A stretch of DNA of 64,000 bases from the IMG/VR virus record IMGVR_UViG_2871871566_000003, positions 1 through 64,000 of that record. One strand, given 5' to 3'. The DNA comes from a virus. Lineage: Duplodnaviria > Caudoviricetes. The notes below the pieces were generated by a model. That model was not told the origin of the DNA and ran no database searches. It saw nothing but the letters and a program-made list of their open reading frames with translations. The position numbers were made by a program, and so were the translations under genes. Positions 6,457-56,500 of the stretch are shown here, in pieces; positions within the stretch are counted from its first letter, which is position 1; each line of letters starts with the position of its first letter.

Positions 6457-7362
6457 ATGGCAGAAACAGCAGTAGCAAAGGCACAGCCTTCTCAGAAGGC
6501 AGTAGCAGTTAAGAATTTTCAGGCGGTAATGAATAATAGTTATTACCAAAGCCTGTTGCAGAGTTCACTTAAGGAGAATAAAGGTGCTTTTTGCACCTCA
6601 CTTATGGAAATCTTTTCATCCGATGAAAAGTTGCTCCAGTGCAAACCGAATGACTTGATGGCTGAGGCTCTGAAAGCAGCCTCCCTTCGCTTGCCTCTCA
6701 ATAAGCAGCTGGGACAGGCATATCTCCTTCCGTTCAAGAACAAAGGAGTAATGACTCCTACGCTCGTTATCGGTACGAAGGGTTATCTCCAGTTGGCTAT
6801 GCGCACCGGCAAGTACGAGACAATCAACGCTGATGTAGTATACGAAGGTGAGTTCAACCATTACGACAAGGTTACAGGAAAGCTTGACCTTTCGGGTGCT
6901 CAGATTTCAAATACTCCAATCGGTTACTTCGCCTACTTCAAGAAGAAGGATGGTCTTACCAAACTTCTCTATATGACACTTGATGAGGTATGCCGCTACG
7001 CAAAGCAGTATAGTCCTACCGTTAAGTTCAGCGAAAAGGTTGATGCTGAGAAGCTGAAGGAAATGGCTCTCAAGCAGGCTGCCAACGGAAGTGGCGAAGG
7101 CGTAGGATGGTATTCCAACTTCGAAAGTATGGCCATTAAGACTGTTCTCAGAAGACTCCTGTCGAAGTGGGGAGAACTCTCTATCGAATCAAATGACATC
7201 ACAAACCTTGATGAGGCTCCTTCTGCCATCGTTCAGCGTGATGAGGAGTTCGCCGAGGCAAAGAACGTTATTACGGTCAATGCTGATACAGGCGAAGTAG
7301 TGAATGCCGAAGAAGTACATGATGAGCAGCCACAACAGGCTCAAAAGTTTAGTTTGAGTTAA
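6457..7362 (+). CDS. recT: RecT-family single-strand annealing recombinase
   Basis: LPLNKQLGQAYLLPF, IGTKGYLQLAMRTG, MAIKTVLRRLL motifs; follows SbcC-like ATPase. Confidence 0.9.
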   Translation: MAETAVAKAQPSQKAVAVKNFQAVMNNSYYQSLLQSSLKENKGAFCTSLMEIFSSDEKLLQCKPNDLMAEALKAASLRLPLNKQLGQAYLLPFKNKGVMTPTLVIGTKGYLQLAMRTGKYETINADVVYEGEFNHYDKVTGKLDLSGAQISNTPIGYFAYFKKKDGLTKLLYMTLDEVCRYAKQYSPTVKFSEKVDAEKLKEMALKQAANGSGEGVGWYSNFESMAIKTVLRRLLSKWGELSIESNDITNLDEAPSAIVQRDEEFAEAKNVITVNADTGEVVNAEEVHDEQPQQAQKFSLS

Positions 7363-7381: not shown

Positions 7382-7870
7382 ATGAAAAAGTATATTGGAA
7401 CAAAGGTTATTATGGCAGAGCCTATGACTATGACAGAAGCACAGAAAGTGCTTGGTAGAGAACTTACACAATCAGCCATTGAGGAAAATGGCTATTTGGT
7501 AGAGTATGAGAACGGATATAAGTCTTGGTCTCCTAAGAGTGTGTTTGAGAAAGCCTATCGTGAAGTAGGCTCTGTTAACTTCGGTGGTGCTATTGACTTA
7601 TTGAAGGCAGGTCTTGCGGTAAGACGCAAGGGATGGAATGGTAAGGGGTTGTTTATCGTGAAGCAGGTTCCTTCACACATTACAGGTGACATCATTCCTA
7701 AGATGCAGTCATTGCCACAGATTGCTAAGGACATTCTGATGAAGCGTGAGAATCCTAAAATTGACTACACCAATCAGATGCTTATCATCAATCCAGATGG
7801 CAGAGCAGATTCTTGGGTGCCATCGTCTAGTGATGTATTTGCAGACGATTGGGAAGTTGTAAATGAGTAG
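7382..7870 (+). CDS. Two-domain protein: N-terminal KKYIGTK domain fused to DUF2829/Tad2-like domain
   Basis: C-terminal FGGAIDLLKAGLAVRRKGWNGK ... WVPSSSDVFADDW fits the DUF2829 (Tad2-like) consensus. Confidence 0.7.
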   Translation: MKKYIGTKVIMAEPMTMTEAQKVLGRELTQSAIEENGYLVEYENGYKSWSPKSVFEKAYREVGSVNFGGAIDLLKAGLAVRRKGWNGKGLFIVKQVPSHITGDIIPKMQSLPQIAKDILMKRENPKIDYTNQMLIINPDGRADSWVPSSSDVFADDWEVVNE

Positions 7871-7921: not shown

Positions 7922-8646
7922 ATGAAGTTAATAGTCGTAAATAGCAATAGTCTTGGCAGTGCCTACGTACTGGAGGCTAGTAATGGTCAGCAGCTCTGTA
8001 TAGAGGCAGGTCGTCCGTTGCAGGAAGTAAAGAAAGTTGCAAACCTCAAAACATCAAAATGCGTGGGAGTGATTATAAGTCACTCCCACGGCTGAAAGGC
8101 GATCATGCAAAAAATGCCAAAGACTTTCTCAAAGCAGGAATCGATGCTTACTCTACCGAAGAGCTATCCGAGAAATGCAAGGGAGTAAAAGGTATGATTA
8201 AAGAACAGACCTATCATCTAGGTGCTTTCAGTATCACCCCGATGAAGGTAGAACACGATGTGCCTTGTTTCTCTTTCCTCATTCATCATCCGGAAATGGG
8301 AACCATGATGTTTTTCACCGATTGCTACAATATGGAAAATGTAGTTCAAGGGTGCCGGTACTTCTTGGCAGAATGCAACTATGATGATTCTCTCCTAGAG
8401 AAAGCCGTAAACGAAGGCAAGACGATAGTCAGCCAAGCCGACCGCATCCGTCTTTCCCACATGAGTCTAGCTCACTCTATCGAGTATCTCAACGAATGCA
8501 AGGCAGCCAATACCGCCAAGCGCATCGTCCTCATTCATGGTTCAGCACGCCATCTTAACCCTGATGTTGCCGTAAACAAATTCCAGCAGGTCCTCGGTGT
8601 TCCAACCGACTATGCTTGCAAGGGTTTAGTAATCAATCTAATGTAA
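7922..8646 (+). CDS. MBL-fold metallo-hydrolase split at the HxHxDH motif by an 8-nt insert (recoded gene or pseudogene)
   Basis: Frame A 7922-8095 ends ...ISHSHG-TGA; frame B resumes GGC GAT CAT at 8098 (GDHAK..., later TDCY, ECNY, HMS, LIHGS); removing 8 nt gives HSHGDH. Confidence 0.75.
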
Positions 8647-41543: not shown

Positions 41544-44500
41544 TTATTCCAATCTATCCAGTTCATCCACCGCATCCATCATGATCCTGTCAATATTCTG
41601 GTTAGCGAAGTTGATGCTCTCGGTATCAGAAGACTTATCTCTGAGCTTCTTCCATCGCTTCATCTGCTTCTCTGCCAGCTCGATGATTCTAACCTTGGCA
41701 GCCTCCTTGGAGTTTTGGAATTGATAATACTCACCTATATTCGTGATTCTCTTGTCAAGTGGAACGTTCTTCGATTTCAGTCGGTCTACGTTGGCCATGG
41801 TCTTCTCCATTTCGTCTTTATAGTTATACCACTTGCTCTTTGTTCGCTGCAAGCTGCTCTGCTCGCTAGGCGTATAAAGAAGGGAACGAAGGAAAGGAAT
41901 GTCCTTGGTTTCAGTATCTTTACCGTTCTTTATTAAACCGCCAACTCGCTCAACGAATGTTGCAGCACCACCAAAATAACTTCCGTAGAAGTGATGCAAG
42001 GCAGAAGGATTTGTAACCGCATCCAAGAAGTCATTGCCTTTCATATCCTCGTTGCCCGGCGCAACATCATTTGTCAAGGCATTAACCTCCTTATTCCTAT
42101 TAATCATCCACTCTGGCGTTCCCTTATATGCAAGCATCCATGATGGCTGATTCTCATCGAACTTATTTTCTCGCTGAATAGGAGCACCCTTCCAATCGCT
42201 ATTATAAACCCACTCCAGGAAAGGAGAAGTTGCAGAAGGGGCTAACGCCTTGATGGTTTCCTGCCAAGGATGCTTGCCAAATGAAGAGTTGCCAAGATAA
42301 TCTGCTACTGGGACCAGCTGAGACATGCAGCCTACAGCGTCCATAAACGGATTCAGATACTTGTCAATATCCTTATTCTCCGTAAGGTTCGGCATCTTCT
42401 GGCTTGAAATATTCTTCGAGAAAGTCATGCCGGCAGCAAAGTCACCCAAGCCATAGAAAGCTCTCTCCTCAATCGCAAGCGGAATAGTAACAAACTCTCC
42501 ACCGCCAATATACACACAGAGGTTATTTCTTCTGATATAATCAGGCAGCTCGCCGTATGGGTCCTTCACGCCCTTTCTATCTTTCTCGTCCTCATTACTG
42601 ATGATGAAGTTATTAAGAAGGGCCATGGCCATACCACTAATAAATGGAGCACTGGCAATATAGCCGATGGTTCCAACCTTGTTGTTCTTGAAGTTCTTAA
42701 TCAGGAGATTAGTACTCTGAATACCGGCATTGAAGAACATGGAAGAATTTCTGAACCATGAAGCTGTGAATCCATAGATATTCCTTCTTGCAGTCTTAAA
42801 AGACCCCATTTCTCCATTCTTGAAGGAGTAAACAGCATTACCAGAACCATGTCGGTTAAAGTTGGTAGATACTTTCTTCGCGTCATAAACAGAACGGATA
42901 ATAGAACGGTTACTGTCTCGGCTAGCGCAATAGGTTGCGAAGCGAGCAAGATTCTCTGCAATTTCGTTTACATTCTCCAAGTTTTTGAAGATAGCATTAT
43001 AAAAGCCCTTTCCGACTTTTTGAACTCTGCTTCGTTCACCTTTAATGTGCATCTTGTATTCCTTGGTGAAGTCCTTCATGTTCTTGATTTGTACCCAACC
43101 GGTTTCGCCTCCGTTCTCCATGAACTCCTTGAAGTATCTATGTAATTTGTTGGTAGTATCAAGTGTACCATTGCGATACTTGGCATAAAGACCGAAGCCG
43201 CCGGTATCTGCAAAGTCTTTCAACTTTGAATTTCTGATTCCCTCAATAATACCAACCTTTGCATAGTACTGTTCAAATCTCTTGGTATAAACAAGACCTT
43301 CATTTGCCAAGAGGTTAGTCGATGCATACTCAAAGTCCTTGATCATATTTCGCATCACGAACTCAGGATTGTATGAAGTACAGAGTTGAGCCATATTTCT
43401 TGAAATGCTAGCGGCTACTCGTCCTGCAAGTGTATCATTCTTATGCTCCAGCAATCCATTCAACGCCTGCGCTGCTCTAGGATTTCCGTTAATAATAAAA
43501 GAATGTGTCCTTCCGGCAATCTTCACATCTACGATATGCTGCGATTTGTTCTCTGCTCTTTGGAACTTATATCCGATACTGCCCCTGCGGTAAACCTTCG
43601 ACGCCAAACCCTGTGCAGACTTCGCATTCATGTCCGTATTGAAGTCTGCAACTATCTGGTTGATTTCGTCTGGGGTAGCATCATCAGGAATATCTGGATA
43701 ACGCTCATATACGATACCAGTCATAGGGTCCTTCTCGTACCATACGCTTACTTCGGTAATCAGATTATTGTTCGAGTTGTTTCTTGCGAATCTTGCAAAC
43801 GCCATTTTGATGGCATTCATACCACTGTTCTTGATGGCTCTGTTGCCCATCGCACCAATCTGCGCCAGCACGTTTGTCTCACTCAGATACTTGTGTCCTC
43901 TCGCTCTCATAATCGTGCTTCCGATGTAACTCTTCGGGTCGCCCTGCTCAGTAATGTAGCCGTAGGTATCTTCTGCAGTAGCCTCATCATACTTTCTCAA
44001 AGGCACATACCAGTTGAACATATTCGATACATGGCCGTGCAATTCCTTACTGATGATACCATTCTTGTAATCGCTGTCAATAGAATACTGGGTAGCAGCC
44101 TTCACCTTTTCCCAATAGTCCTTCACAGCTCCCTTCTTGATGCTCTCCATCTTCGCTTCCGAATCCATCACGCTCTGAATAGCCTCGGCATCATTGTAAG
44201 GGTCAGAAGATTTCGCCACCTCCTGAATAGCGTGCATACCCGAATAGTCGTGCTCGCCAGCATCGAAGTCTGCATCAAAGTGATTTCTGATACTCTCATC
44301 CAACTGTCTGTAGTACTCCTTCAGGTCGATGTTGCCAGCCTTCAACTCGTTATCAAGATACTCCTTATCGCTATAATAACTGTTTTCCAAGAAGTCAGCA
44401 TCCTGCTTCTTCTGCTCGTCCATCCTCATCTTCTTCAGGAAGTCACGAACAAAGAACACTCTGTTTCGCTCCAAACCATGCTTGGTAATCATGTAGAGAT

Positions 44501-47500
44501 TGAAGTTTCTGATCTTCTCATCATCCTTCTTGCCATCGAAAGCATCCAGTACGCCGGCCATGGCCTTATCAAGAGGCTTCATTACATTGCGCTCAAACAT
44601 CTGAGCCGCATCACTCATCGCGCCCTGCATGGTGTTCTGCAACATATAAGGATTCTCCGAAGAAGCAATATCCTCAATCTTCTTGTCAGGCACAATCGCA
44701 TTCATCAGTTTCTTCAACGAAAGCATATTGTCCATATAGCTCTCGGTAAACATATAGCCATGCTCGTCAAGTGAACGATGGTATCTGTCAAGTGCCGTGC
44801 CGGCAGATGGGGTAGTACGGAAGTGAATCTCACCATCTGTAACCTCATTCCACTCAGCCTTGGTAAGATTATCCATACTTCTAACCTTTCCGTCATTTCC
44901 GTAGAACATGCCATCGTGCGCCACGACAGCAGGCATACGCTCATGGTCGAGACGGTATTTCACCGCCTCGGCTCTAAGTTTCCAATAAGGATCATTTGGA
45001 TTCTTCTGCAAGTTCTTGCTCAACCAGAGCAGATACTTCACATCTTTAGTATTAGGAGCAACACGATAACCGATTTCATGAAGGAAATCAGATACCTTGT
45101 TTTTGATACCATTCCAGAAGCCAGCTTCACCCTTGCCATCCTCGGCGAGTCGCGCGATACCTTCCTCAATAGCATCATAGATATTCAGAGGATTGAACTT
45201 TCTCTCCTCATCCACCAGCTTCTTCAAAGCCGCATTCTCAGGCTTATCCAAGTCGTACCACACTTCACGAAGGAACTTATCGAATCGTTCATCACCAAAC
45301 AACTCTCTCATTCCCTTGTGTCCAACTACCTCATGCCAGATAGTCTTCTCGGCAGTATATCTGTCGTGGATATTAGGCATATAAAGATGCACCTCGCCAG
45401 TCTTCTCATCATACCAGCCAGTAATCTTTCTGCCTTCCTCAATAGCAGCCTTCGCCGCCTTGTTGGTGATTTCATCAACCGATGAAACCATGTTCACCTT
45501 TGCGCCAGTCTTCTGAGCCACCTTTTCTACATGGTTTTCAACCGATGAAGTAGGGTAGTTGCCATCGCCGTGGTCCGTGCGGAACTTAGTGCCACCGTCT
45601 TTGCCCCATTCCTTGAAGGCATCCTTTGTCATTTTCACGTTGACGAACTTAGCCTGAGGGAACTCCTGTTCCAGTTCAGCCATCTGCTTCAAGAACTTCT
45701 CCTTTGTTTCAGGGTTCTGTCTGCCTTGCTCTACGGTAGTGATAGGCACACCAAGTTTTACTAACTCTCTCAACTGGTTAGGGGTAACTACGTTCCAAGG
45801 GATAGCCAATCCTGTTCCTCTCAGTTGGTCGGCGATTTTCTCAGCAACCTCCTCGTCAGGCAATATTCTTACTGCCTTTCTCCATCTAGAGAGCATCACG
45901 CTTCTCTGTCTGTCCTTTGGCAGAAGGCTGTTGACTGTTCCAGAAGTCCAAGGCACCAAGCCCACAGAGTTCTTTGCGCCCTCGGCGTGATAGCTGCTAG
46001 TCTTCTCGCTCTCAGGAATCTCCCATTCAACAACCTTGATGTTGCCTCTGGCGTAAGCACCAGAGAACTGGTCGTTCATCACCGAAGTGGAAGTGTGCAT
46101 GTAAGGGTTATAAGCCGCTGGCACTGGTCCTTCACCTGCCCCAGGGTTCTTATCGGTCTTCACAAGTTGGAACTTGCCGTTCTTCACAAGGTCCGGCCGC
46201 TCGTCTGCGCCCATCCAAGCACCAATCTCGGTAGCATCGGTACGCTTTCCGTCAATAATAGCAGCCATAGGAGAGTACAACTTTCCGTCCACCTCCTGCA
46301 TACCGCTATACATTCTGAAAGTCTTTTCCTTGTTGAGGCGGTCCAACTCGTCCTTGTCTGTAACCTTATAGGCAAATCCGTCCTGCTCAATATCATTCAT
46401 GGAAATATCATCAATGGTTTCATTGAAATCATCCATGATGTCGTTGATAGCCTTATCCATCTTATCCTTCTCAGAAACCTCAAAGAGCTTCTTCCAAGCA
46501 TCCTTCAAGCGTTGCAGGATAGAACGGTCGCCCTTTCTTGCAAACTCATGTGCTGCATTCACAACTTTATCCCAGATAGACAGGCCCATCGCCTTTCTCT
46601 GTCTAGAATCTGCCATCTGAGCAGTCAGCTCGTAAGCATCAGACAGACCGTAAGGCTCTTCTTTGAAGCGTTCCTTATCGTCCTTTACCTTGTCGTAGAT
46701 TTCGAGGATGGTCTTTACGCCCTCTATCTGCTTAGGAGTCAGCATGCCCTCAGCCTTGCCTTTCTTAACGAGATTGATAGCACCCATTGTTACCTCATGA
46801 ATCATTTCATGCAGCATAATAGTAGGGGCAGCGTAGTCTGGAGCCTTGGTCTTTGTCAGGCCATCAATATACAAATCAATGTTCCTGTAGGTGTCTGCTT
46901 CTCCTGATCTCTTCTTCGGACTCTCGGCACTTACCTTGATGTTAACACCAAGACGTTTGTTTATATCGAGAACTCTTTGGAAGAGTTTAGCCTTTCCTTT
47001 ATCTCTATTTGTTTCTTTAAAAATTCGTTCAACGGCTCCAAGTGTGAACGCTCCTCCTGGCTGCAATCCCCAAGTCTCTCTGAGATTCTTTGCTCTAGCG
47101 TCTCTATAGGCAAGTTCTCTGTCAGCGACGGCGAGAACGGTCTTATAATATTGCAGTAGATAAGAGCCTTTATTTCCCTTACCGTCGTTCTTACTACCAA
47201 GATGTCGTCCGGTATGCTGTCCTGATAACTTTTCAACTTTTCTTTCATAATCATTCTTGAAATATTCTATAGTACTTCTGCCATAATCAGAAAAATCATC
47301 CAAGGCAGAGCTTACATCATTAATAATTCCAGACTTATCTCTGTCTTCTGCATGCTCTACAATGTCTTCAATGGCAGAATCAAACTTCTTTTCAATCTGC
47401 GAAGATACGTTTTTATCTACATCTTCGGGAATGATTCTACCTTTCTTAACATCTTTTGTATCTGTTTTAGAATACTGCAAGCCTCGGTCCTCACGGAAGT

Positions 47501-50500
47501 GGGTACCTTCATCCTGAGAAGTATTGCGCTCCTCCTGTACCTTCACACCCATCTTAGACAGGCGGTCCAGTACTGGCTTCAACTGCTCAGGCTTAAACTC
47601 AGCAAGCATATTGTTGCCTCTGGTTTCGAAGTTATTGCCATTAACCAGTTTCAGCAAATCTTCATCCATGAAGTACTTGCCGCCCTTTGCCTTGCTCTTT
47701 GGCACACGAAGTTCGAAGTAGTAGCCACGATTGTTGTCTATGCGTTTCACCTTTACTTCACCATCCGATGAAGTAACCTCGTCAATACCGCCGTGCCATG
47801 ATGAAAGTTCAAACTTATCTACCACGCTGTTGATAGGTGCATCCGTAGTCAAGCCCTTAGGGTCGAATCTATCTGGCATCAAGATACCAGTCTTCACCTC
47901 GCCAGTATCAGTTGTATATTTCACCAACTGACCGCCCAAGCCCTGATCCTTGCTGTCAACCAAAGCCTGCATCAGATTACCAGTTACAATATAGCCATTC
48001 TTGCGGCTCTCATTGCTAGTCAGTCTATCCCAGTTATCAAAGTTTTGGTTCAATACTCTGAGATGGCTGTCTCCCATACCGGCAGCCTGCTTGGTCATGC
48101 GATCGATAGAACCGATAATATCCACCTTGTTTTCACCAGAACCCACCTTGCCGGCAATAGGGAAAGTAATCTTTCTTCTGCCATCCAAGGTGGCAAAAGA
48201 TACAGAAGAGGCGTTAGGCGAGAAGTTATCCGTAATCTTAATATCAATGAGTCTTCCGTAACTGTTACCGAATCCGCTCAGTTCATTTGGATTGTTCATA
48301 TCTGCAGGCAGAACGAAAGCGCTGTTAGTATCGAAGGTATCAAGCACACGCTCAAACATTTCAGCCTTAGCTTTCAGATTCTTCACCACATCGTTCAGCT
48401 TATCTTTCTCCTGCTTGTAGATGTTGTCATACTGATAGCCAGCCATCTTCTCAATCTGCTCATCGCTCATGCCCGAATCCTTCTGACCCTTCTTGCCATC
48501 TTTGATATACTTCTCCTTAGCCTTGGTTGCAGCCTTCACGGAACGATCCTCATACTTCTGAGTCTCGTCAGCAATCTTCTGGTCGAAGTACTCTTTCACG
48601 GCAGTCTTCTTCTCGGTCTTGTATTCATCCCAAGTCTTGCCGCCAGTCAAACCATTCTGCGAAGCCTTCACCTCAGAAGCCTTCATTGGCTTCTTCAAGA
48701 TGGCCATGTTCACCTTTTCTATATAGGTGTTGTCGGCAAAGGCATTATCGCCGCCCGGCTCTGCACCCTGCTTCCAAACTTCCTTGTGGAGAGTCTTAGC
48801 CTTCAAAGGCAGCTCGGTAATCTCAAGGTCATTCTCACCCATTTCGTTGAGTCGCTGAATCTCGTTGGCATAAAGCTCGCCAATCTCCTGCAACATCTTC
48901 TCCTGTTCAGAAACTCTCAGCAGAGCCATACGCCCAAGCAACTTGCTTGCATCGGCACCAGCTTCTTTTCCACCAAGCTTTCCTCCAGAAGTAACAATGA
49001 GTCTCTGAGGGTCAATAGTAGATAAATCTTCACCGAAAGAGCCTTCCCATCCGAATGGGTCTGCCATGCGAGCATAAAGGTCAAGATGTTCTGCCATGTA
49101 TTCTCTGACAACCTTATCACCATACTTGTTGATAATATCAGAAACCTCCATGTCGTTGAACTTACTCTTCTGAGAAGAAGTTGTGTTGGCATCAAGTGAC
49201 TTCAATTTAGCCTTAAACATCATCAGCAATCGCTGCTCAGATGGAATTTGAGAAACAATATACTCATATCTACCACGGTTAACCTGTCCTGTTCGATCAA
49301 TACGACCACGCATCTGTACTTCCTCGTTCACATCTGGTTGTTGCTGAACAACAATCATAGTACGTGGCTTGTGCTCTACATCGTACTCCACAGAGTCATG
49401 CAACGAAATACCTGTAGAAGCACTTCGGTTAAGAATTAAGGCATCAAGCTTGTTGGTATTAAAATCAAGGGCAAGCTTCTTTTTGTCCGTATTAGTACGT
49501 TTAACTTTTGATACGGTTCCATTTTGATTCTTAACAAACATAGTTTGTCTTCCAGTTAACTCTCCTACACGATAACCAGCTGCTTCGAGTTCGTCACGAA
49601 CAACATCAATAGGAGAGAGTGAAAGACCTGTTGAGGCATTCTTTATATTATCCTCAATTTCATGATAACGAGCAACAGCATCAGGACCTAAATCTTCAAG
49701 ATTAAAAGTGCCGAATGTCTTATTACCCATATCGTCTGTTTGATCATAGCGAAGGACGCCCTGCAATCCCTTCATCAAGACAACGCCCAAGTCTGGTGCT
49801 TCCATTTCTGCATTAGCCTCATACTGTTCCGTCTGGCTTTCATTTGTATTATTAAGGGCGATAACCACCTTTTCTCCATTCTTTAAATGCTCGATGGCAC
49901 TTTTAGCTGCTTCTCTTGCTTTCAAAGATAGAAGTACCTGCTGAACCATATTATAGGTTCTGCTTGCAAATGGCTGGTTATGAATACCAAGGTCTTTTGT
50001 TCCTTGTCTGTTTTTGATGGATGCTTGGATAGCAGCAAGTTCATCATTGCGCTTATCAAGATAAGCACCTACGTAAGTTCTTTGGAAATTGATAATATCA
50101 TTAAACAATCCGATGATACTATCATACTGTTCTCGCTGTTCTTCAACAACAACAGGATCGTCTATCGTTTTCCAGTCAATAGTCACGCCAGTCATATCTC
50201 GCTCACGGCGAATAAACTGACCGCTGGCAGTAAGTGCTTGCGACATGACTTCCTGCAAAGTAGCTCCACCACGCTTGATGGCATCAATGAGTTCGGATGG
50301 TTTCATTCCTGCCTGGTTCATAGAGGTGCGCAAAGCGTAGATAGGCATATTGTCTGGTCGCTTTGCATAGGTTGCTGATAGGAAAGTGATAGCGTTGAGC
50401 TTTGGAACAACATATTGCAAATAAGCGGAACCACTACCTTGACCTCCTGCCTTGTGGCTCTCATCCATGATAACGTTGGCATTCTTTGCTATAGCTTCCA

Positions 50501-53500
50501 AAACATCACGTTTTCTTTGTCCGTTCTTTGAACCTTTACCATTCTTTCTTACCGTTTTCTTTCCATCCTCATAATCCATAGTTCCACTAGAGAAACTATC
50601 ATACGTAGTAACGATATAGTCATATCCGTCTGGTAACTTACCATTCTTTTGAAGATAATCCATCACTCGCTCCTGCTCTTTGTCAGAAGATAATTGATAG
50701 ACTAACTTGCCTTCCGAGTCTGTCATGTCGGCAGAGTGTTCCTTGTCCTTTGCAGCCCAAATAAAAGGACGCAAGTCAGAATTACCAATACTCTTCAAAT
50801 CTCTGTACATATCGCTAAATAGAGCCTTCTTGGCTGTGATAAATACAGGAATCTTACCTTGCTTATAGGCAAAGCGAATCATGGCAGCAGCCTGTCTTCC
50901 CTTACCGATACCAGTCATGTCACCGATAATGAAAGCATTTCCTTGCTTAGCTTGATGGATTGCAAGTGCAACGGAATCTGCTTGCTCGGATGCAAGTGCA
51001 TGGTGCATATCGTCTGCATCGTTATAGCCAAGTTCATCAACCAAGAAGCTATCAACATCGCCAATCTTCTCCAAGGCTTTCTTTGTCGCTCTGGCTTGGT
51101 CGGCAGGAATAACCGAGTTGAGACTGAAAGGGTTGTTGCTTTGAGGAACGTATTTCACCTTTTCGGTACTCAACTCACGCTTAGGTGATTCTTCTTTTTT
51201 TACTCCCAGTCCATTTCCCTCTCGTGTGGGAACAGTCCGCTGAACGCTGCTGCTGGAACGTCCTTGTCCTCCTTGTTGCTTTCTATCTCCTCCTGTTCCT
51301 CTTTCGTTGCTGGTCTCATTGGCATTCCTAGCAACTGAGCCTTCAGGTACTCGCCCTCCGTTGTCCAGTCTAGAACTTGCTGAGCCAGTTCCTCTATCTG
51401 CTCCAAAGTCGGAATCTCTTCCGCTTTCCAGTTCGGCGTTATCTCCCATGTGTTCAGATGGAGTTCGTTCAGTTTCTCCCATAGGTCGCTCATCACTTCC
51501 TCCGGTTCCCAAATCTGATATGAATCCATCAGGTCCAGAGCCATGCTCCTTGTTATTTGTGACTCCGTTACCACCTCGCTCTTTTTGTCTGAGACTATCC
51601 CCGGAAACGTCAGAAACACGTTCTCTGTTGGAAAGTCCCAAGGGTTCTTTCTGCACCCCTCGTTTACGTAATATGTCATCTTCAATTCGTTTATAAAGTT
51701 CGTCATAATCTTTCACGGCTTCCGCTCTAGCATCCTTATCAACTGGTGGGAACACCTTGTGCTCAGGATCGTAATTGCGTCTTCCGTTTATTAATATAAT
51801 ACGTGTAGGATAGCTGGTTCCCTGCTTTGCATAGAGACTACCATCCACATTAATCACGTCCTCCACATTATAGTGGCTATAGAGATAACCAAGGAAAGCC
51901 TTATCCTTCGGATTCAGACTTCCGTTCTTGGCGTATTCCGTCTTGCCGCCAATAATAATAGCAGCACGACCATCGTCCTTCATGCTCTCCAAAGCATTGA
52001 TAGCCATCTGTCCTTCCAAAGAAGAAATCTTGTAGCCGTCATACTCCTTAGGGGTAGCACTACCGAATGGTGGGTTTGTTACCACCACGTCAACGTCCTT
52101 GTCTGCAAAAGGCTGGGTTCCATCCTGACTGGTCACGTTCTTGAAGCCCTGTCTTCTCAGGTTCGCCAATCGCTGGGCATCAATATCGTTCACATGTACC
52201 TTATCCATTGGCAGACCGATGGTAAGCATACCGTTGCCGGCACTTGGCTCCAGAGCACTCTCAATCACCTTACCATTGCCCTTCACATACATGTCTGCAA
52301 GGAAGGCGTAAGGGGCAGGGGTAGAGTACTGCTGTTTCATCACTCGCTCAGAATCTCTCTGGTTGAGGCTAGGCTGATTCTCATAGAGTGTCTTGATGCG
52401 TTCAAACTTCACAGCATCGTTGGTTGATTCAGAAGAAGCGATACCTCTTGCTCGCTTAACAATAGCTGTTTCAGCAAGCTCCTGAAGGTCTGTGTCCTTA
52501 ATATCCTTCAAACCAACTCTCTCAGCTATCTTTCTCAGCTCAACAATACCGTTAAACTTATGTTTGAAGCCCAACTGCAGGTTCACAACATCAATAAACC
52601 TCTTCTCAGCCATCTTTCTTTCCTCGGCAGTCTTGGAGTCGCCCACCAGATTCTCCTGATGCTTAGGCGAAGTCTTCTCGTAGTAGTCAGCCCAATCCTT
52701 CAAGCTCATGCGCTGCTCGCCATCGCGATAGCGGATATTCATCATCTGCTCATAGATAGCATCCACGTCTTCCTTCTTAAAGAGCTTGGCAGCAGGGGCA
52801 AACTCCTTGCGCATTTCCTTCACCACGTCTTCAAGATTGTGCATACCTCTCTTGATTCTCAGATAAGCATTTTCGGCCATGGCGCTCACCAGCTTAGGCA
52901 ATACTTCCAGCTGTCTAGAGTTAAGACCAACAAACGAAGCAGAAATTTCATCCTTGCCGGCATTCTTGAGCATATCCCAAAGGTCATTAACCTTCTTGTT
53001 GGAAGCTGCTACTGCTGCATCGTCAGCCTTCTGCTGAGGCTTCTTCTCTGTCTCAGCCTTAGTTTTCTTCTCCTTTCCAAAAGCTTCTGCTGCATTCTTG
53101 ATTCCCTCCATAGGGTCAGCAGATGGTTCCTTTTTTGGAGCCTCAACCTTTGGTTCAGTCTTCTGCCCTCTAGTCTTGGCAAAGATGCTTTCATAGATAG
53201 CACGATGCAAATCATCTGTCACCTCACCGTTCAGATAATCAAGAGCCATATCCTTGGACAAATCATCCACGTCTGCCTCCTTGATCTCATCCTCAGTCAG
53301 AGGATGCTCCTTCTTGAATTCCTGGGCGGCCGCCGCAATCGGGTCAAAAGTAGGGTCTGGGTTCTCTTCTTTAGGAAGGAGTGGGAGAGGTTTTTCTTTT
53401 ACCTTACCGTCAACATATTCGACAACCTCATTCAGGTCACCATACTTCTTGCCATCATACTCGTAGTATGAGCCAGTGTATTCGCCCTTCTCGTTTGGCT

Positions 53501-56500
53501 CATCAACCTTGATAACCTCCTTGTCTCCATCAATCAGAATCTTCTGCTTCATGATAGGACCATTCTTTGATGGAGTCTCGGTTTCCTCGTCAGTAACCTT
53601 AATACGACTTTCGAGTTCCTTGTTTACTAAGTCGTCTGGTTCCTCTACTCTTGTTCGTTCTGGTTCTGTTCCTGCTTCTGCTGGTTCATTTCCTCCTGAT
53701 GCTTCTTGTTGAGGTTCTTCAACGCCTGAAACATCATGGCTTCCTTCTGTTTCTGAATGTCCTGTTCCATAATCTTGCCATTTTTTAAAGTTCAAATACT
53801 CATTAATTAGCTCTTCCTTGGTAGGAGCTGCCTCAAACATATTGCCCTCGCCAGTATTTCTAGCCTTAGCGATGCGGTTGTATTCGTCAAGCAAATCTCT
53901 GAAATCAGAAACCTTGCCCTCCAAGGCTAAAGCCATCATCTGAGAGATAGAAGAGTAACGCTTAGCCGCATCCTCACCGAACATGTCTGGTGTTCTCAGC
54001 AGCGTATCAACCTTATTGCCGCCCTGTCTTGCCTCATAGAGCAATTGGATAGCCTGATCAATTTCATCACGAAGAGAGAACTCGCCCAGCTTCATGTTGT
54101 CCATTACCGAGCGGATAGCGTTGATAGCCTTATTCTTCACCGTAGAGTCGATGCCCAGCATTCTGATAGTCTCTGGCTTGAAGATTGAACCCAAAAGAAG
54201 GTTCTTCACATACTCCCTGCCTTGTGCAGAAAGTCGCTCAGGACTATCCATCATCTGTGCCACCTCGTTCTGTCCGATGATGCCTTTATCTACTAACGTC
54301 TTCACCAAGTCATTTATTGCCTTGGAATTGTTAAAGAAAGCATCAAGAGAACCATTTCCTTCAATCTCGGCAACAATCGCGCCTACCTCGTCAGAAGTCA
54401 AGGTCTTAGCCTTGGCAACCGCCAGTTCGGTATTGCTCTGAGTCTTCTTCTCGTTTCGGTTAAACTTAGCGAAGGTAGCTGCATCGTATGGCAATCTCTC
54501 ATCCGTCACCATTACCAGACGAGGATGCTCGATTCCGCTCTGCTCAATCTGCTCTCTGGTAAAGCCGAAGTTCTCGGCATTTTCCAGAAGGTCGTTGATG
54601 TATTCGCCGTCCGTGCCTTCCTTTGCAGCCTTCTGTCCTGCCATCGTTCTGCCGTTGCCATCATAAACGATACCTTCGTCAGATACAACCGGCACATTCT
54701 CGATAGCCATACCATTATACTTCATGGCAATCTGGTCGGTATTCTGCTGAGCCGCCTTGTCGTGCTCATAGTCACGATCGTTCACGGTTCTACCCTCAGC
54801 ATCGGTAGGGAATCCCTCAGATTTCTTATAGTCGTTATTCACATCATGAGAAGGAGTAAGACTTTCTGCCGGCACAATCTCATAGTGTCCCTTAATCTTG
54901 GTCTCTCCGTCAGGCAGCATTCTTGTGCGTTTGTTGCCCACAAGTCTAGGTGCATTCACAAACTTCTGTGCAGCCACGCTACCAGCCTCATGCGCACCTT
55001 CAACCTGTTCTGTCTTACCCACGGTCTCGGCAACCTTCTTGGCAGTCATAGCCTTCTTGATATTCTGAGCGTGGGTCAACTGCTTCTTGGCAGCTTCAAT
55101 AGTCTGATTCTTCAAAGTCTCCTGCTCCATGATGTCGTTAGGCTCGGCGGTATAGTCCACCTTCATCTTCTCGGCATCCTTCAAAGCCTTCTCTGCTTTC
55201 TGAATCTGTCCGTCCACTACCTTTTCAGCATTCTCCCCGAAATCCTCAGTAAGAATCTCCGCACTCTGCTCAGAAGTCATACTAGCATAGTCTGGCGTAG
55301 GTCTTCCCTTACTGTCCATAGCCATAGGAACATCAGAACCATCGGCAAACTTTCTGCTAGGCTGAGGCTGCTCTACTTGTTGAACTGAGGCATCGCCTTC
55401 GCTAGCATTTTCCTCTGCTTCTCCATCACTTCCACTATTGGCATTGTCGCCTTTTCGAATTTTTCCATCTGTTTCATTGTTACTAATCTCTTCATTTTTA
55501 TTTTCTTTAGGTTGAACTTCCTGCTGTGCCTTGGCAGCATCCTGCATAGCCTGCTCCTGTGCCGCCTGATTGTAAGGCTCAGAGTTCTTCATCTGCAATC
55601 TCTGACGATATTCTGCAGCAAACTGGTCAATAGGCTGGTTTTGAACCAGAGTAACCTCATCTGCCTTCACATAAACCAATTCCTTGGTATTAGGGTCCAG
55701 GCAGACAAGCATATCGCCGCTTCCTTCCTTAGCTCTGCCAGTAGTCTGGTCGAAAGCAACATCACCCGAACCAACAAGAAGTGTTCTTCCGCTGCTGTCT
55801 TGAACATACAGAGCCTGCTCGCCATTCATCGCATGACCGTTCAATGTTCCGTGATAGCTCCAATCAGAAATAAAGCTCTTCACGTTTTCCTCTATAGCAT
55901 CAGCAGTAGCCTGCTGCATACCCTGCACTCTAGCGTTCGCATTAATATATTGGGCAAGTGGGGTCAACTCTTCTTGGGTCAATCCATTCTGAATGAGTGC
56001 ATCGTAAATCTGTGCCGGCGTCAAGCCCTGCTGGTGCAATTTCTCAAAGGTTTGCTTGAACACATCGTTGCTATCCATCGCTGCATCAATGGCTTGCTCT
56101 GCGTTTCGAAGGTTGCGCAATTCATCAACTACCACGCCGCTGTCCGGGTTGTCCGTTCCCAGACTATGCTCCTCGGCAACCGTCTTACCTTGGCTGGCAG
56201 ACTGGTCTGCGTGTGGTCTCCAGCTAGGGAAAAGCTCATCTTCGAGTGCTCTCTTCACATGATAGAAGATTCTGTTCTCCTCATCGGTACGCTTCATTGG
56301 GTCCTTGCGCATGATTTTGTCAATATCAATAACAATGCTTCCTTCTTTACCAAGAAGTTCTTTGATAGAAGCCATGAAGTTATTAGTATAACCTTTGCTT
56401 TCTGATCTGAGGTAACCAAGCAAGCCGTTCTTATCCGCATACTTCTCCCAGTAAAGATAGAGTGCGCTCTTCGGGTTGCGCAAGTCATTAATCAGTCGGG

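Follow-up and report, generated by a model that had tools for sequence, protein, structure and literature searches.

Candidate programmed stop-hop within the metal-binding motif of a hydrolase gene in Bacteroidota phages

To our knowledge, programmed translational bypassing has for decades been represented by gene 60 of phage T4 and its homologues, by inserts in yeast mitochondria, and by one candidate in a Streptomyces phage. T4 gene 60 contains matched Gly codons, an adjacent stop codon, and a 5' stem-loop that is proposed to drive forward movement (bioRxiv 10.1101/2024.12.09.627546). In the mobA-gene 60 cassettes, an imported segment that ends at the landing codon lies behind an overlapping endonuclease ORF (bioRxiv 10.1101/2022.08.31.505936). 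The latter report covers topoisomerase genes only.

The closest published short-gap case is the terminase gene of Streptomyces phage Hau3. It contains two 10-nt gaps, and the bypass junction peptide was detected by mass spectrometry in E. coli (PMC10732093). As outlined in a 2016 recoding review, stop-hops were seen with synthetic reporters in E. coli (Weiss et al. 1987), where matched codons surround a stop and 9 nt specify one amino acid (PMC5009743). The same review describes the bypass inserts in the mitochondria of Magnusiomyces capitatus (27–55 nt, GC-rich, 81 per genome) and a 29-nt hop in plaA of Prevotella loescheii, which by that account was never followed up (PMC5009743). A natural in-frame stop-hop was not known at the time of the review (PMC5009743).

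The gene described here is interrupted inside its HxHGDH motif, between Gly and Asp. Full-text literature searches found no published report of a gap at this HxHG/DH site.

The interrupted hydrolase gene

The window, i.e., the whole stretch of 64,000 nucleotides that was analyzed, corresponds to positions 1 to 64,000 of the 75,670-base IMG/VR provirus record IMGVR_UViG_2871871566_000003, which is rated complete. Relatives of the window are found in assemblies of Segatella copri, other Segatella species, and Leyella stercorea, and a DNA search of the GenBank phage collection returned no match to it. The minus strand at 41544–58949 contains one ORF of 5,801 codons, which occupies 17.4 kb of the 75.7-kb phage genome. 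The features at and around the interrupted gene are as follows.

6457..7362, plus strand: RecT recombinase gene (Pfam RecT, E = 1e-37), the usual upstream neighbor of the hydrolase gene
7382..7870, plus strand: Tad2-like gene (Pfam Tad2-like, E = 2e-18), occupying the variable slot for cargo that separates RecT from the hydrolase
7922..8092, plus strand: ORF1, the first 57 codons of a metallo-beta-lactamase (MBL)-fold hydrolase, ending with His-Ser-His-Gly; its stop is TGA at 8093–8095
8059..8646, plus strand: overlapping ORF in frame -1, which contains ORF2 and has a 195-aa product
8062..8090, plus strand: 5' hairpin with arms 8062–8072 and 8080–8090 and loop 8073–8079; the 3' arm covers the codons for His-Ser-His and extends over the first base of GGC at take-off
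8090..8092, plus strand: putative take-off codon GGC (Gly57), read from the sequence; GGC or GGA in all five gap forms
8093..8095, plus strand: UGA stop, which would occupy the A site at take-off; TGA, TAA, or TAG lies directly 3' of the take-off codon in every gap form
8093..8100, plus strand: 8-nt coding gap, composed of UGAAA and the putative landing codon GGC (8098–8100); exactly these nucleotides are missing from 23 of 42 near-identical loci
8101..8646, plus strand: ORF2, 181 codons from the resume codon GAT (Asp58) to the TAA stop, the remainder of the hydrolase

The nucleotides 8081–8106 read CAC TCC CAC GGC TGA AA GGC GAT CAT. A reading of this DNA made from the sequence alone (hereafter, the sequence-only reading) had reported the layout GGC-TGA-AA-GGC with the ORF broken at HSHG/DH, and the coordinates and frames, re-read from the window, agree with it. 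It had also claimed that a hop of 8 nt yields exactly HSHGDH. Deletion of the 8 nt restores HSHGDH, which is what the near-identical gapless relatives encode, and these are exactly 8 nt shorter, consistent with the claim. No slippery heptamer of the type X XXY YYZ is present in 8059–8095. The window contains no tRNA gene, and thus a phage-encoded hop tRNA is not part of the site.

Neither the ORF1 product nor the ORF2 product, taken singly, matches Pfam. A gapless relative (P0003, 238 aa, from locus L002) matches Pfam Lactamase_B_2 with 29.2 bits (cut-off 27) and Lactamase_B with 24.6 bits (cut-off 22.7), as well as PHROG 392; PF23023 is listed for relatives. IMG/VR by itself contains 519 members of the family. 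The AlphaFold model of P0003 has a pLDDT of 95, and in Foldseek it scores best against the ElaC homologue 1zkp, YhfI, and RNase Z (E = 1e-15 to 1e-13). Structures of the anti-Pycsar nuclease Apyc1 are at rank 28 and lower (TM ~0.62), and Apyc1 was not returned by a profile search of PDB sequences; the protein is not classed as Apyc1. On the basis of these profile matches and the predicted fold, the product of the gapless gene is an MBL-fold hydrolase. In 25 diverse homologues, H54, H56, D58, H59, H109, D131, and H177/H203 are invariant, and the spacing of H54, H56, D58, and H59 is fixed. Within the metal site, the break therefore separates the second His from the Asp.

Other neighbors in the window include an SMC-like ATPase gene and a NinB-like gene. 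The slot between RecT and the hydrolase is a cargo hotspot in the window and in L002–L043. In near-identical phages it contains one of two Tad2-like variants (~72% identical), an HNH/NUMOD4 endonuclease gene, or other small ORFs, or it is empty.

Gap forms, hairpin, and selection

Among 42 near-identical IMG/VR loci from Segatella (Prevotella) phage, the 8-nt insertion of the window is present in 19, and the remaining 23 have CAC GGC GAT CAT. The product of the window's downstream ORF (195 residues) is found on 168 public contigs (NCBI, JGI, ENA, and Logan), the longest of which is 251 kb. Among the 15 cluster members listed, gap-type products are on ~190 contigs and intact products on ~95. 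A break unique to one assembly, which would have spoken against a bypass, was looked for and did not appear: the break is present in many independent assemblies and in an isolate genome. Assembly error and private mutation are both excluded.

Alignment of homologues, the check suggested by the sequence-only reading, indeed reveals that the break recurs at HxHG/DH, with matched Gly codons and with gaps of 6, 8, 10, and 15 nt. Five forms can be distinguished, given here as take-off codon, gap including the landing codon, and distribution.

8 nt: GGC, TGAAA GGC; the window's clade and a clade 63–64% identical to it in protein (L111, L112, L172, and L179)
8 nt with GGA landing: GGC, TGAAA GGA; a single locus, L044
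10 nt: GGC, TAACAAA GGT; L045, L125, L127, and several ENA contigs
6 nt, in frame: GGA, TAA GGA; L180 (isolate Leyella stercorea An906) and nine IMG/VR contigs in at least three subclades
15 nt: GGC, TAGCTAACCAAA GGT; L182–L184

The 6-nt form is also seen on many metagenome contigs, including one viral metagenome. Every copy found in the 63%-identity clade has the gap, and most of the 6-nt subclades were likewise represented by gap copies only. None of ~120 gapless homologues has an insert at HxHG/DH. A pattern search of metagenomes, with patterns that required a GGN landing codon, returned no further gap length, and about half of its matches are chance occurrences in GC-rich DNA.

All forms have exactly 57 codons before the gap and 181–182 after it. 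In all five, the stop is directly 3' of a Gly codon and the gene is cut at the identical HxHG/DH point. The GGN immediately before GAY CAT is the first GGN triplet in any register past the take-off codon, and skipping from the first Gly codon to the second gives HxHGDH in each form. The take-off and landing codons fit one tRNA in four of the five forms (GGC to GGC, GGC to GGT, or GGA to GGA). The exception is L044 (3022–3047, one ENA contig), where take-off at GGC and landing at GGA constitute a wobble mismatch. The frame change required is -1, +1, or 0, depending on the form, and stops close all three frames of the 15-nt form; HxHGDH would result in all of them from a hop only, and no single frameshift accounts for them.

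Shine-Dalgarno-like strings are seen at some of the gaps. The GGA change in L044 also creates AAGGAG, and the 6-nt gap (L180:1668–1680 and all other 6-nt loci) reads TAAGGAG, a perfect Shine-Dalgarno-like string over the landing codon. AAGGNGA is common to all gap forms. Bacteroidota make little use of Shine-Dalgarno sites.

Public gene calls also touch the gap. The protein of L182–L184 (P0033) is called with 243 residues by taking TAG as Gln, and the putative hop site has thus been mistaken for stop-codon reassignment. Reassignment of TAG to Gln, as the gene caller assumes for the 15-nt form, is rejected, since the stop is TGA or TAA in the other forms and their frame changes. One JGI protein of 474 residues named acetylornithine deacetylase (P0139) clusters with the 57-residue N-terminal ORF products, which is probably an artefact of clustering or gene calling.

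The arms of the hairpin, CGTGGGAGTGA (8062–8072) and TCACTCCCACG (8080–8090), are perfectly complementary. In the fold of 91 nt, the hairpin grows to 13 bp, and its minimum free energy of -26.5 kcal/mol compares with an average of -14.0 for shuffled sequences (z = -4.7); none of 200 shuffles matches the stability of the native fold. Thus the perfect 11-bp stem proposed directly 5' to the take-off codon is borne out by both arm complementarity and folding. The second structure proposed, a GNRA mini-hairpin GCU-GAAA-GGC over the stop, fared differently: it is absent from the minimum-energy fold and has no counterpart in the other gap forms. Nor is an A-site (take-off) stem-loop of the gene 60 type conserved across the gap forms. 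The window contains 52 sites with a codon, a stop, and a matching codon that are open on both sides, and the strongest upstream hairpin among them is that of the 8090 site. Two other such sites with a hairpin, 60161 (minus strand) and 58488 (plus strand), fall within large real ORFs, in frames other than the coding one, and are spurious.

All gap forms have a hairpin at the take-off codon (-20 to -25 kcal/mol), whose 3' arm spans the HxH codons into the take-off codon. The same place in gapless homologues of other clades gives -2 to -14.5 kcal/mol. In the 6-, 10-, and 15-nt forms the arms are GTGCTCGTGG/CCACGAGCAY, and both the sequence and the pairing register differ from those of the window. 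Recurrence of the stem in homologues, also asked of the bypass reading, is therefore seen as a hairpin rebuilt from a different sequence. The nearest gapless genes of the HEH clade (L114–L124) specify identical amino acids, R-A-R-G...S-H-E-H, with GCA and CAT GAA in place of the GCT and CAC GAG of the gapped genes. The stem of the gapped genes thus comes from synonymous choices and is lacking in these gapless ones. Within the HEH-type hairpin, exchange among A-T, G-T, and G-C is seen at one pair only, plus one A·C exception.

Among gapless genes, only the intact alleles in the population of the window retain the hairpin, which is thus not gap-specific within that clade. These alleles may derive from gapped ones that recently and precisely lost the gap between their GGC repeats. 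Synonymous polymorphism is depleted near the gap, in codons 34–70 (7 of 37 codons, versus 92 of 192 elsewhere, p = 0.001).

Both halves of the gene are open and under purifying selection (omega 0.06–0.10). In the window's population, 151 of 725 columns vary, the proteins are 98–100% identical, and the gap is the sole indel. For the 3' half, pN/pS is 0.060 for 20 gap alleles and 0.063 for 22 intact alleles. Variants private to gap alleles are 35 synonymous and 19 nonsynonymous, those private to intact alleles 34 and 17, with a neutral N:S ratio of 3.7; singletons on gap alleles show the same synonymous skew as on intact alleles. The 3' halves of divergent gap-bearing pairs give dS 1.2 and omega 0.10 (L044 and L111) and dS 2.2 and omega 0.07 (L045 and L125). 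Relaxed selection of the 3' half, another expectation of a broken gene, is accordingly seen neither in pN/pS, nor in the divergent pairs, nor in the private variants. Between gap and intact alleles, pS equals that within each group, and the alleles are fully recombined.

Upstream endonuclease genes

In most gapless relatives, RecT is directly upstream of the hydrolase. An HNH endonuclease ORF or its remnant is found in that position in 17 of the 18 evaluable loci with 6-, 10-, or 15-nt gaps, and the HNH ORF overlaps the hydrolase start by 4 or 20 nt. Elsewhere, the numbers are 3/24 for the 8-nt form, 2/22 for the hairpin-bearing intact alleles, and 1/36 for other gapless genes. At least five endonuclease types are seen upstream, including HNH_3 with NUMOD4 and PHROG 374. 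In the window itself, the gene upstream of the hydrolase is the Tad2-like gene, not an endonuclease gene.

The endonuclease genes upstream of the hydrolase in L021, L045, L197, and L184 are truncated or reduced to a C-terminal ORF of 79 residues, which suggests decay of the endonuclease after invasion. The HNH gene of the window type (87–100% identical) also lies beside gapless hydrolase genes (L085 and L046/L047), one of them without the hairpin. It is found beside both gap and intact alleles, from which no association with the 8-nt gap emerges, and its target is probably not the HxHGDH site.

Two comparisons bear on the import of the gap. From the landing codon onward to where the gene ends, L218, which has the 6-nt gap and no endonuclease gene, shares 95–100% identity with the intact L120; over the 100 nt before the gap, the two are only ~75% identical. 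This step in identity at the landing codon indicates that the import is recent. Between the window and the 63%-identity clade, identity has a peak of 96–100% at the gap and is 50–60% elsewhere.

By analogy with T4 gene 60 and mobA, the gap probably arose within a homing-endonuclease cassette, and the copy in the window has since lost its endonuclease gene. It can be speculated further, with less than even confidence, that this is a second, independently evolved family of mobile cassettes combining a homing endonuclease and a bypass, in phages of Bacteroidota. The HNH endonuclease would cut the gapless HxHGDH site of rival phages, and the gap, together with ~100 nt of hairpin-forming sequence, would be copied in at repair and protect the carrier. 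Ribosomes would then hop, driven only by the 5' hairpin sequestering the take-off codon.

Interpretation and comparison with known systems

The gene is likely to produce one full-length MBL-fold hydrolase via a programmed short translational bypass, or stop-hop. The bypass put forward in the sequence-only reading is thus supported, the evidence being comparative. The ribosome would read 57 codons and pause when GGC 8090–8092, paired with peptidyl-tRNA-Gly, occupies the P site and UGA the A site. The upstream hairpin of 29 nt, melted by the ribosome, would refold as the mRNA exits the channel. At the pause, its 3' arm would be inside the ribosome and could pair with the exited 5' arm only if the mRNA moves forward. 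Refolding would therefore pull the mRNA forward and bury the take-off codon, and the peptidyl-tRNA would release and re-pair at the first downstream GGN (GGC 8098–8100). Decoding would restart at GAT CAT and give the intact metal-binding motif HSHGDH, the hop product carrying the junction peptide CVGVIISHSHGDHAK. Termination at UGA would give only the 57-residue fragment, so that the gap probably also lowers the amount of enzyme. The upstream stretch KKVANLKTSK is conserved and is kept in gapless homologues too; being conserved with or without the gap, it is uninformative on a nascent-peptide signal.

Two other readings place the event in the DNA. The gap alleles might be null genes, in which disruption of the target site protects the DNA of a homing-endonuclease cassette that repeatedly invades and inactivates the hydrolase, the 3' half looking conserved through recency or recombination. 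The frequency of HNH genes upstream of the 6-, 10-, and 15-nt gap loci (17/18, versus 1/36 gapless loci of other clades) and the recent import at L218, judged against L120, are in its favor. So is the free recombination of gap and intact alleles, through which part of the selection seen on gap alleles could come from intact ones. It leaves unexplained the stop after Gly, the landing at the first GGN, and the hairpin in every form. Besides, 21 of the 24 gap alleles in the window's clade have no endonuclease gene, and the gap nevertheless equals or exceeds the intact state in frequency. Nonsynonymous changes are as scarce among the private and singleton variants of gap alleles as among those of intact alleles, and no second lesion is seen in any of >40 distinct gap alleles, some of which form pairs with dS above 1. 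The alternatives named in the sequence-only reading, a footprint of an excised element or a dead gene, are both weakened, and the null-gene reading is unlikely. Much the same features weigh on the idea that the gap is the DNA-level OFF state of a heritable switch, turned ON by precise loss between the GGC repeats or by recombination with intact alleles. Both alleles are at similar frequency on all haplotype backgrounds, and the 3-nt direct repeat GGC...GGC would permit precise deletion. Nevertheless, no mechanism would restore these 8 nt once lost, and the switch leaves unexplained the hairpin, the position of the stop, and the first-GGN rule across four gap lengths. With every copy found in the 63%-identity clade gapped and most 6-nt subclades seen as gap copies only, such a switch is very improbable.

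Two further readings keep the gene functional through translation of another kind. An N-terminal fragment of 57 residues and a separately initiated C-terminal fragment might assemble non-covalently, perhaps by termination-reinitiation. An ATG at 8059 is in the downstream frame of the window, and in the 10-nt form, 5 nt ahead of the stop, CAT GGC is overlapped by an ATG from which MANKGDH... would be made. In the 6-nt form, the first start past the stop is a GTG 16 codons beyond Asp-His, so that the C-terminal fragment would lack two metal ligands, and the frame of the overlapping ATG in the 15-nt form stops after four codons. As no start is conserved across forms, as HxH and DH of one metal site would be on two chains, and as the conserved landing GGN is unaccounted for, a split gene has only a very small probability. 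Ordinary recoding, i.e., -1 or +1 frameshifting or stop readthrough, would instead leave a tolerated insert, as HSHG-LKG-DH, HEHG-NKG-DH, or HEHG-x-G-DH. As this would need, the 8- and 10-nt forms keep the downstream frame open over the junction. It would require three mechanisms for one conserved site; there is no slippery heptamer in 8059–8095, and the 15-nt form is closed in both shifted frames. Moreover, the spacing of H54, H56, D58, and H59 is fixed in 25 homologues, and ~120 gapless homologues have no insert, which makes ordinary recoding highly unlikely. For -1 frameshifting in particular, the absent slippery site, the shifts of 0, -1, and +1 needed by homologues, and the 15-nt form closed in all frames reject it as the common mechanism. 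The dismissal of a simple -1 slip in the sequence-only reading was therefore correct.

If the stop-hop interpretation is true, these would be the first natural stop-hops and a minimal, transplantable bypass signal, very small in being one hairpin and two Gly codons. The locus offers a natural series of gap lengths (6, 8, 10, and 15 nt) with all three stop codons, and the gapless alleles of the same phage population are built-in controls. It would become testable how far a hairpin at the mRNA exit pushes the ribosome, how the landing site is chosen, and whether bypass gaps serve as immunity to homing endonucleases. Gene callers split such genes or read TAG as Gln, and the annotation of gut phages would thus be systematically wrong at such sites.

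The locus shares with T4 gene 60 a Gly take-off codon matched by a Gly landing codon, a stop directly 3', and a 5' stem-loop. The action proposed here for the hairpin fits the model of gene 60 in which pairing of the exiting mRNA is the driver (bioRxiv 10.1101/2024.12.09.627546). As in T4 mobA/gene 60, an HNH ORF is directly upstream of the bypass ORF and overlaps its start at the 6-, 10-, and 15-nt loci. Take-off is also ~50 codons into the gene, and the imported segment ends at the landing codon. The gap of T4 gene 60 is 50 nt (20 nt in one Aeromonas clade), while the gaps here are 6–15 nt. Unlike T4 gene 60, the gap forms have no conserved A-site/take-off stem-loop and no Shine-Dalgarno-like element at the T4 spacing. 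The gap lies here in the gene of an MBL-fold hydrolase that is not split from an upstream part, whereas the T4 gene is that of a topoisomerase subunit, and the hosts are Bacteroidota instead of the Proteobacteria of the T4 type. Several unrelated endonuclease types are associated with the gap here, unlike in T4, and none is in the window's own copy.

The Hau3 terminase resembles this locus in its short frame-disrupting inserts in a phage gene, the flanks of which are adjacent in gapless homologues, and in a 5' stem-loop as the proposed stimulator. The pause codon of Hau3 is the rare sense codon UUA, tied to the host life cycle, whereas here it is a stop. Gaps are present in only 3 of 100 terminase genes, and no gap-length series or endonuclease link was reported for them (PMC10732093). 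The inserts of M. capitatus and plaA are also short non-coding inserts in conserved genes that are skipped by ribosomes, and plaA comes from the same bacterial family as the hosts here; neither lies in a catalytic motif beside a homing endonuclease. The 6-nt form, GGA TAA GGA, is exactly the arrangement of the synthetic stop-hops, and that of the window is the +8 version of it. The synthetic stop-hops are artificial and of low efficiency, whereas the arrangement here is natural, conserved, and accompanied by a dedicated hairpin.
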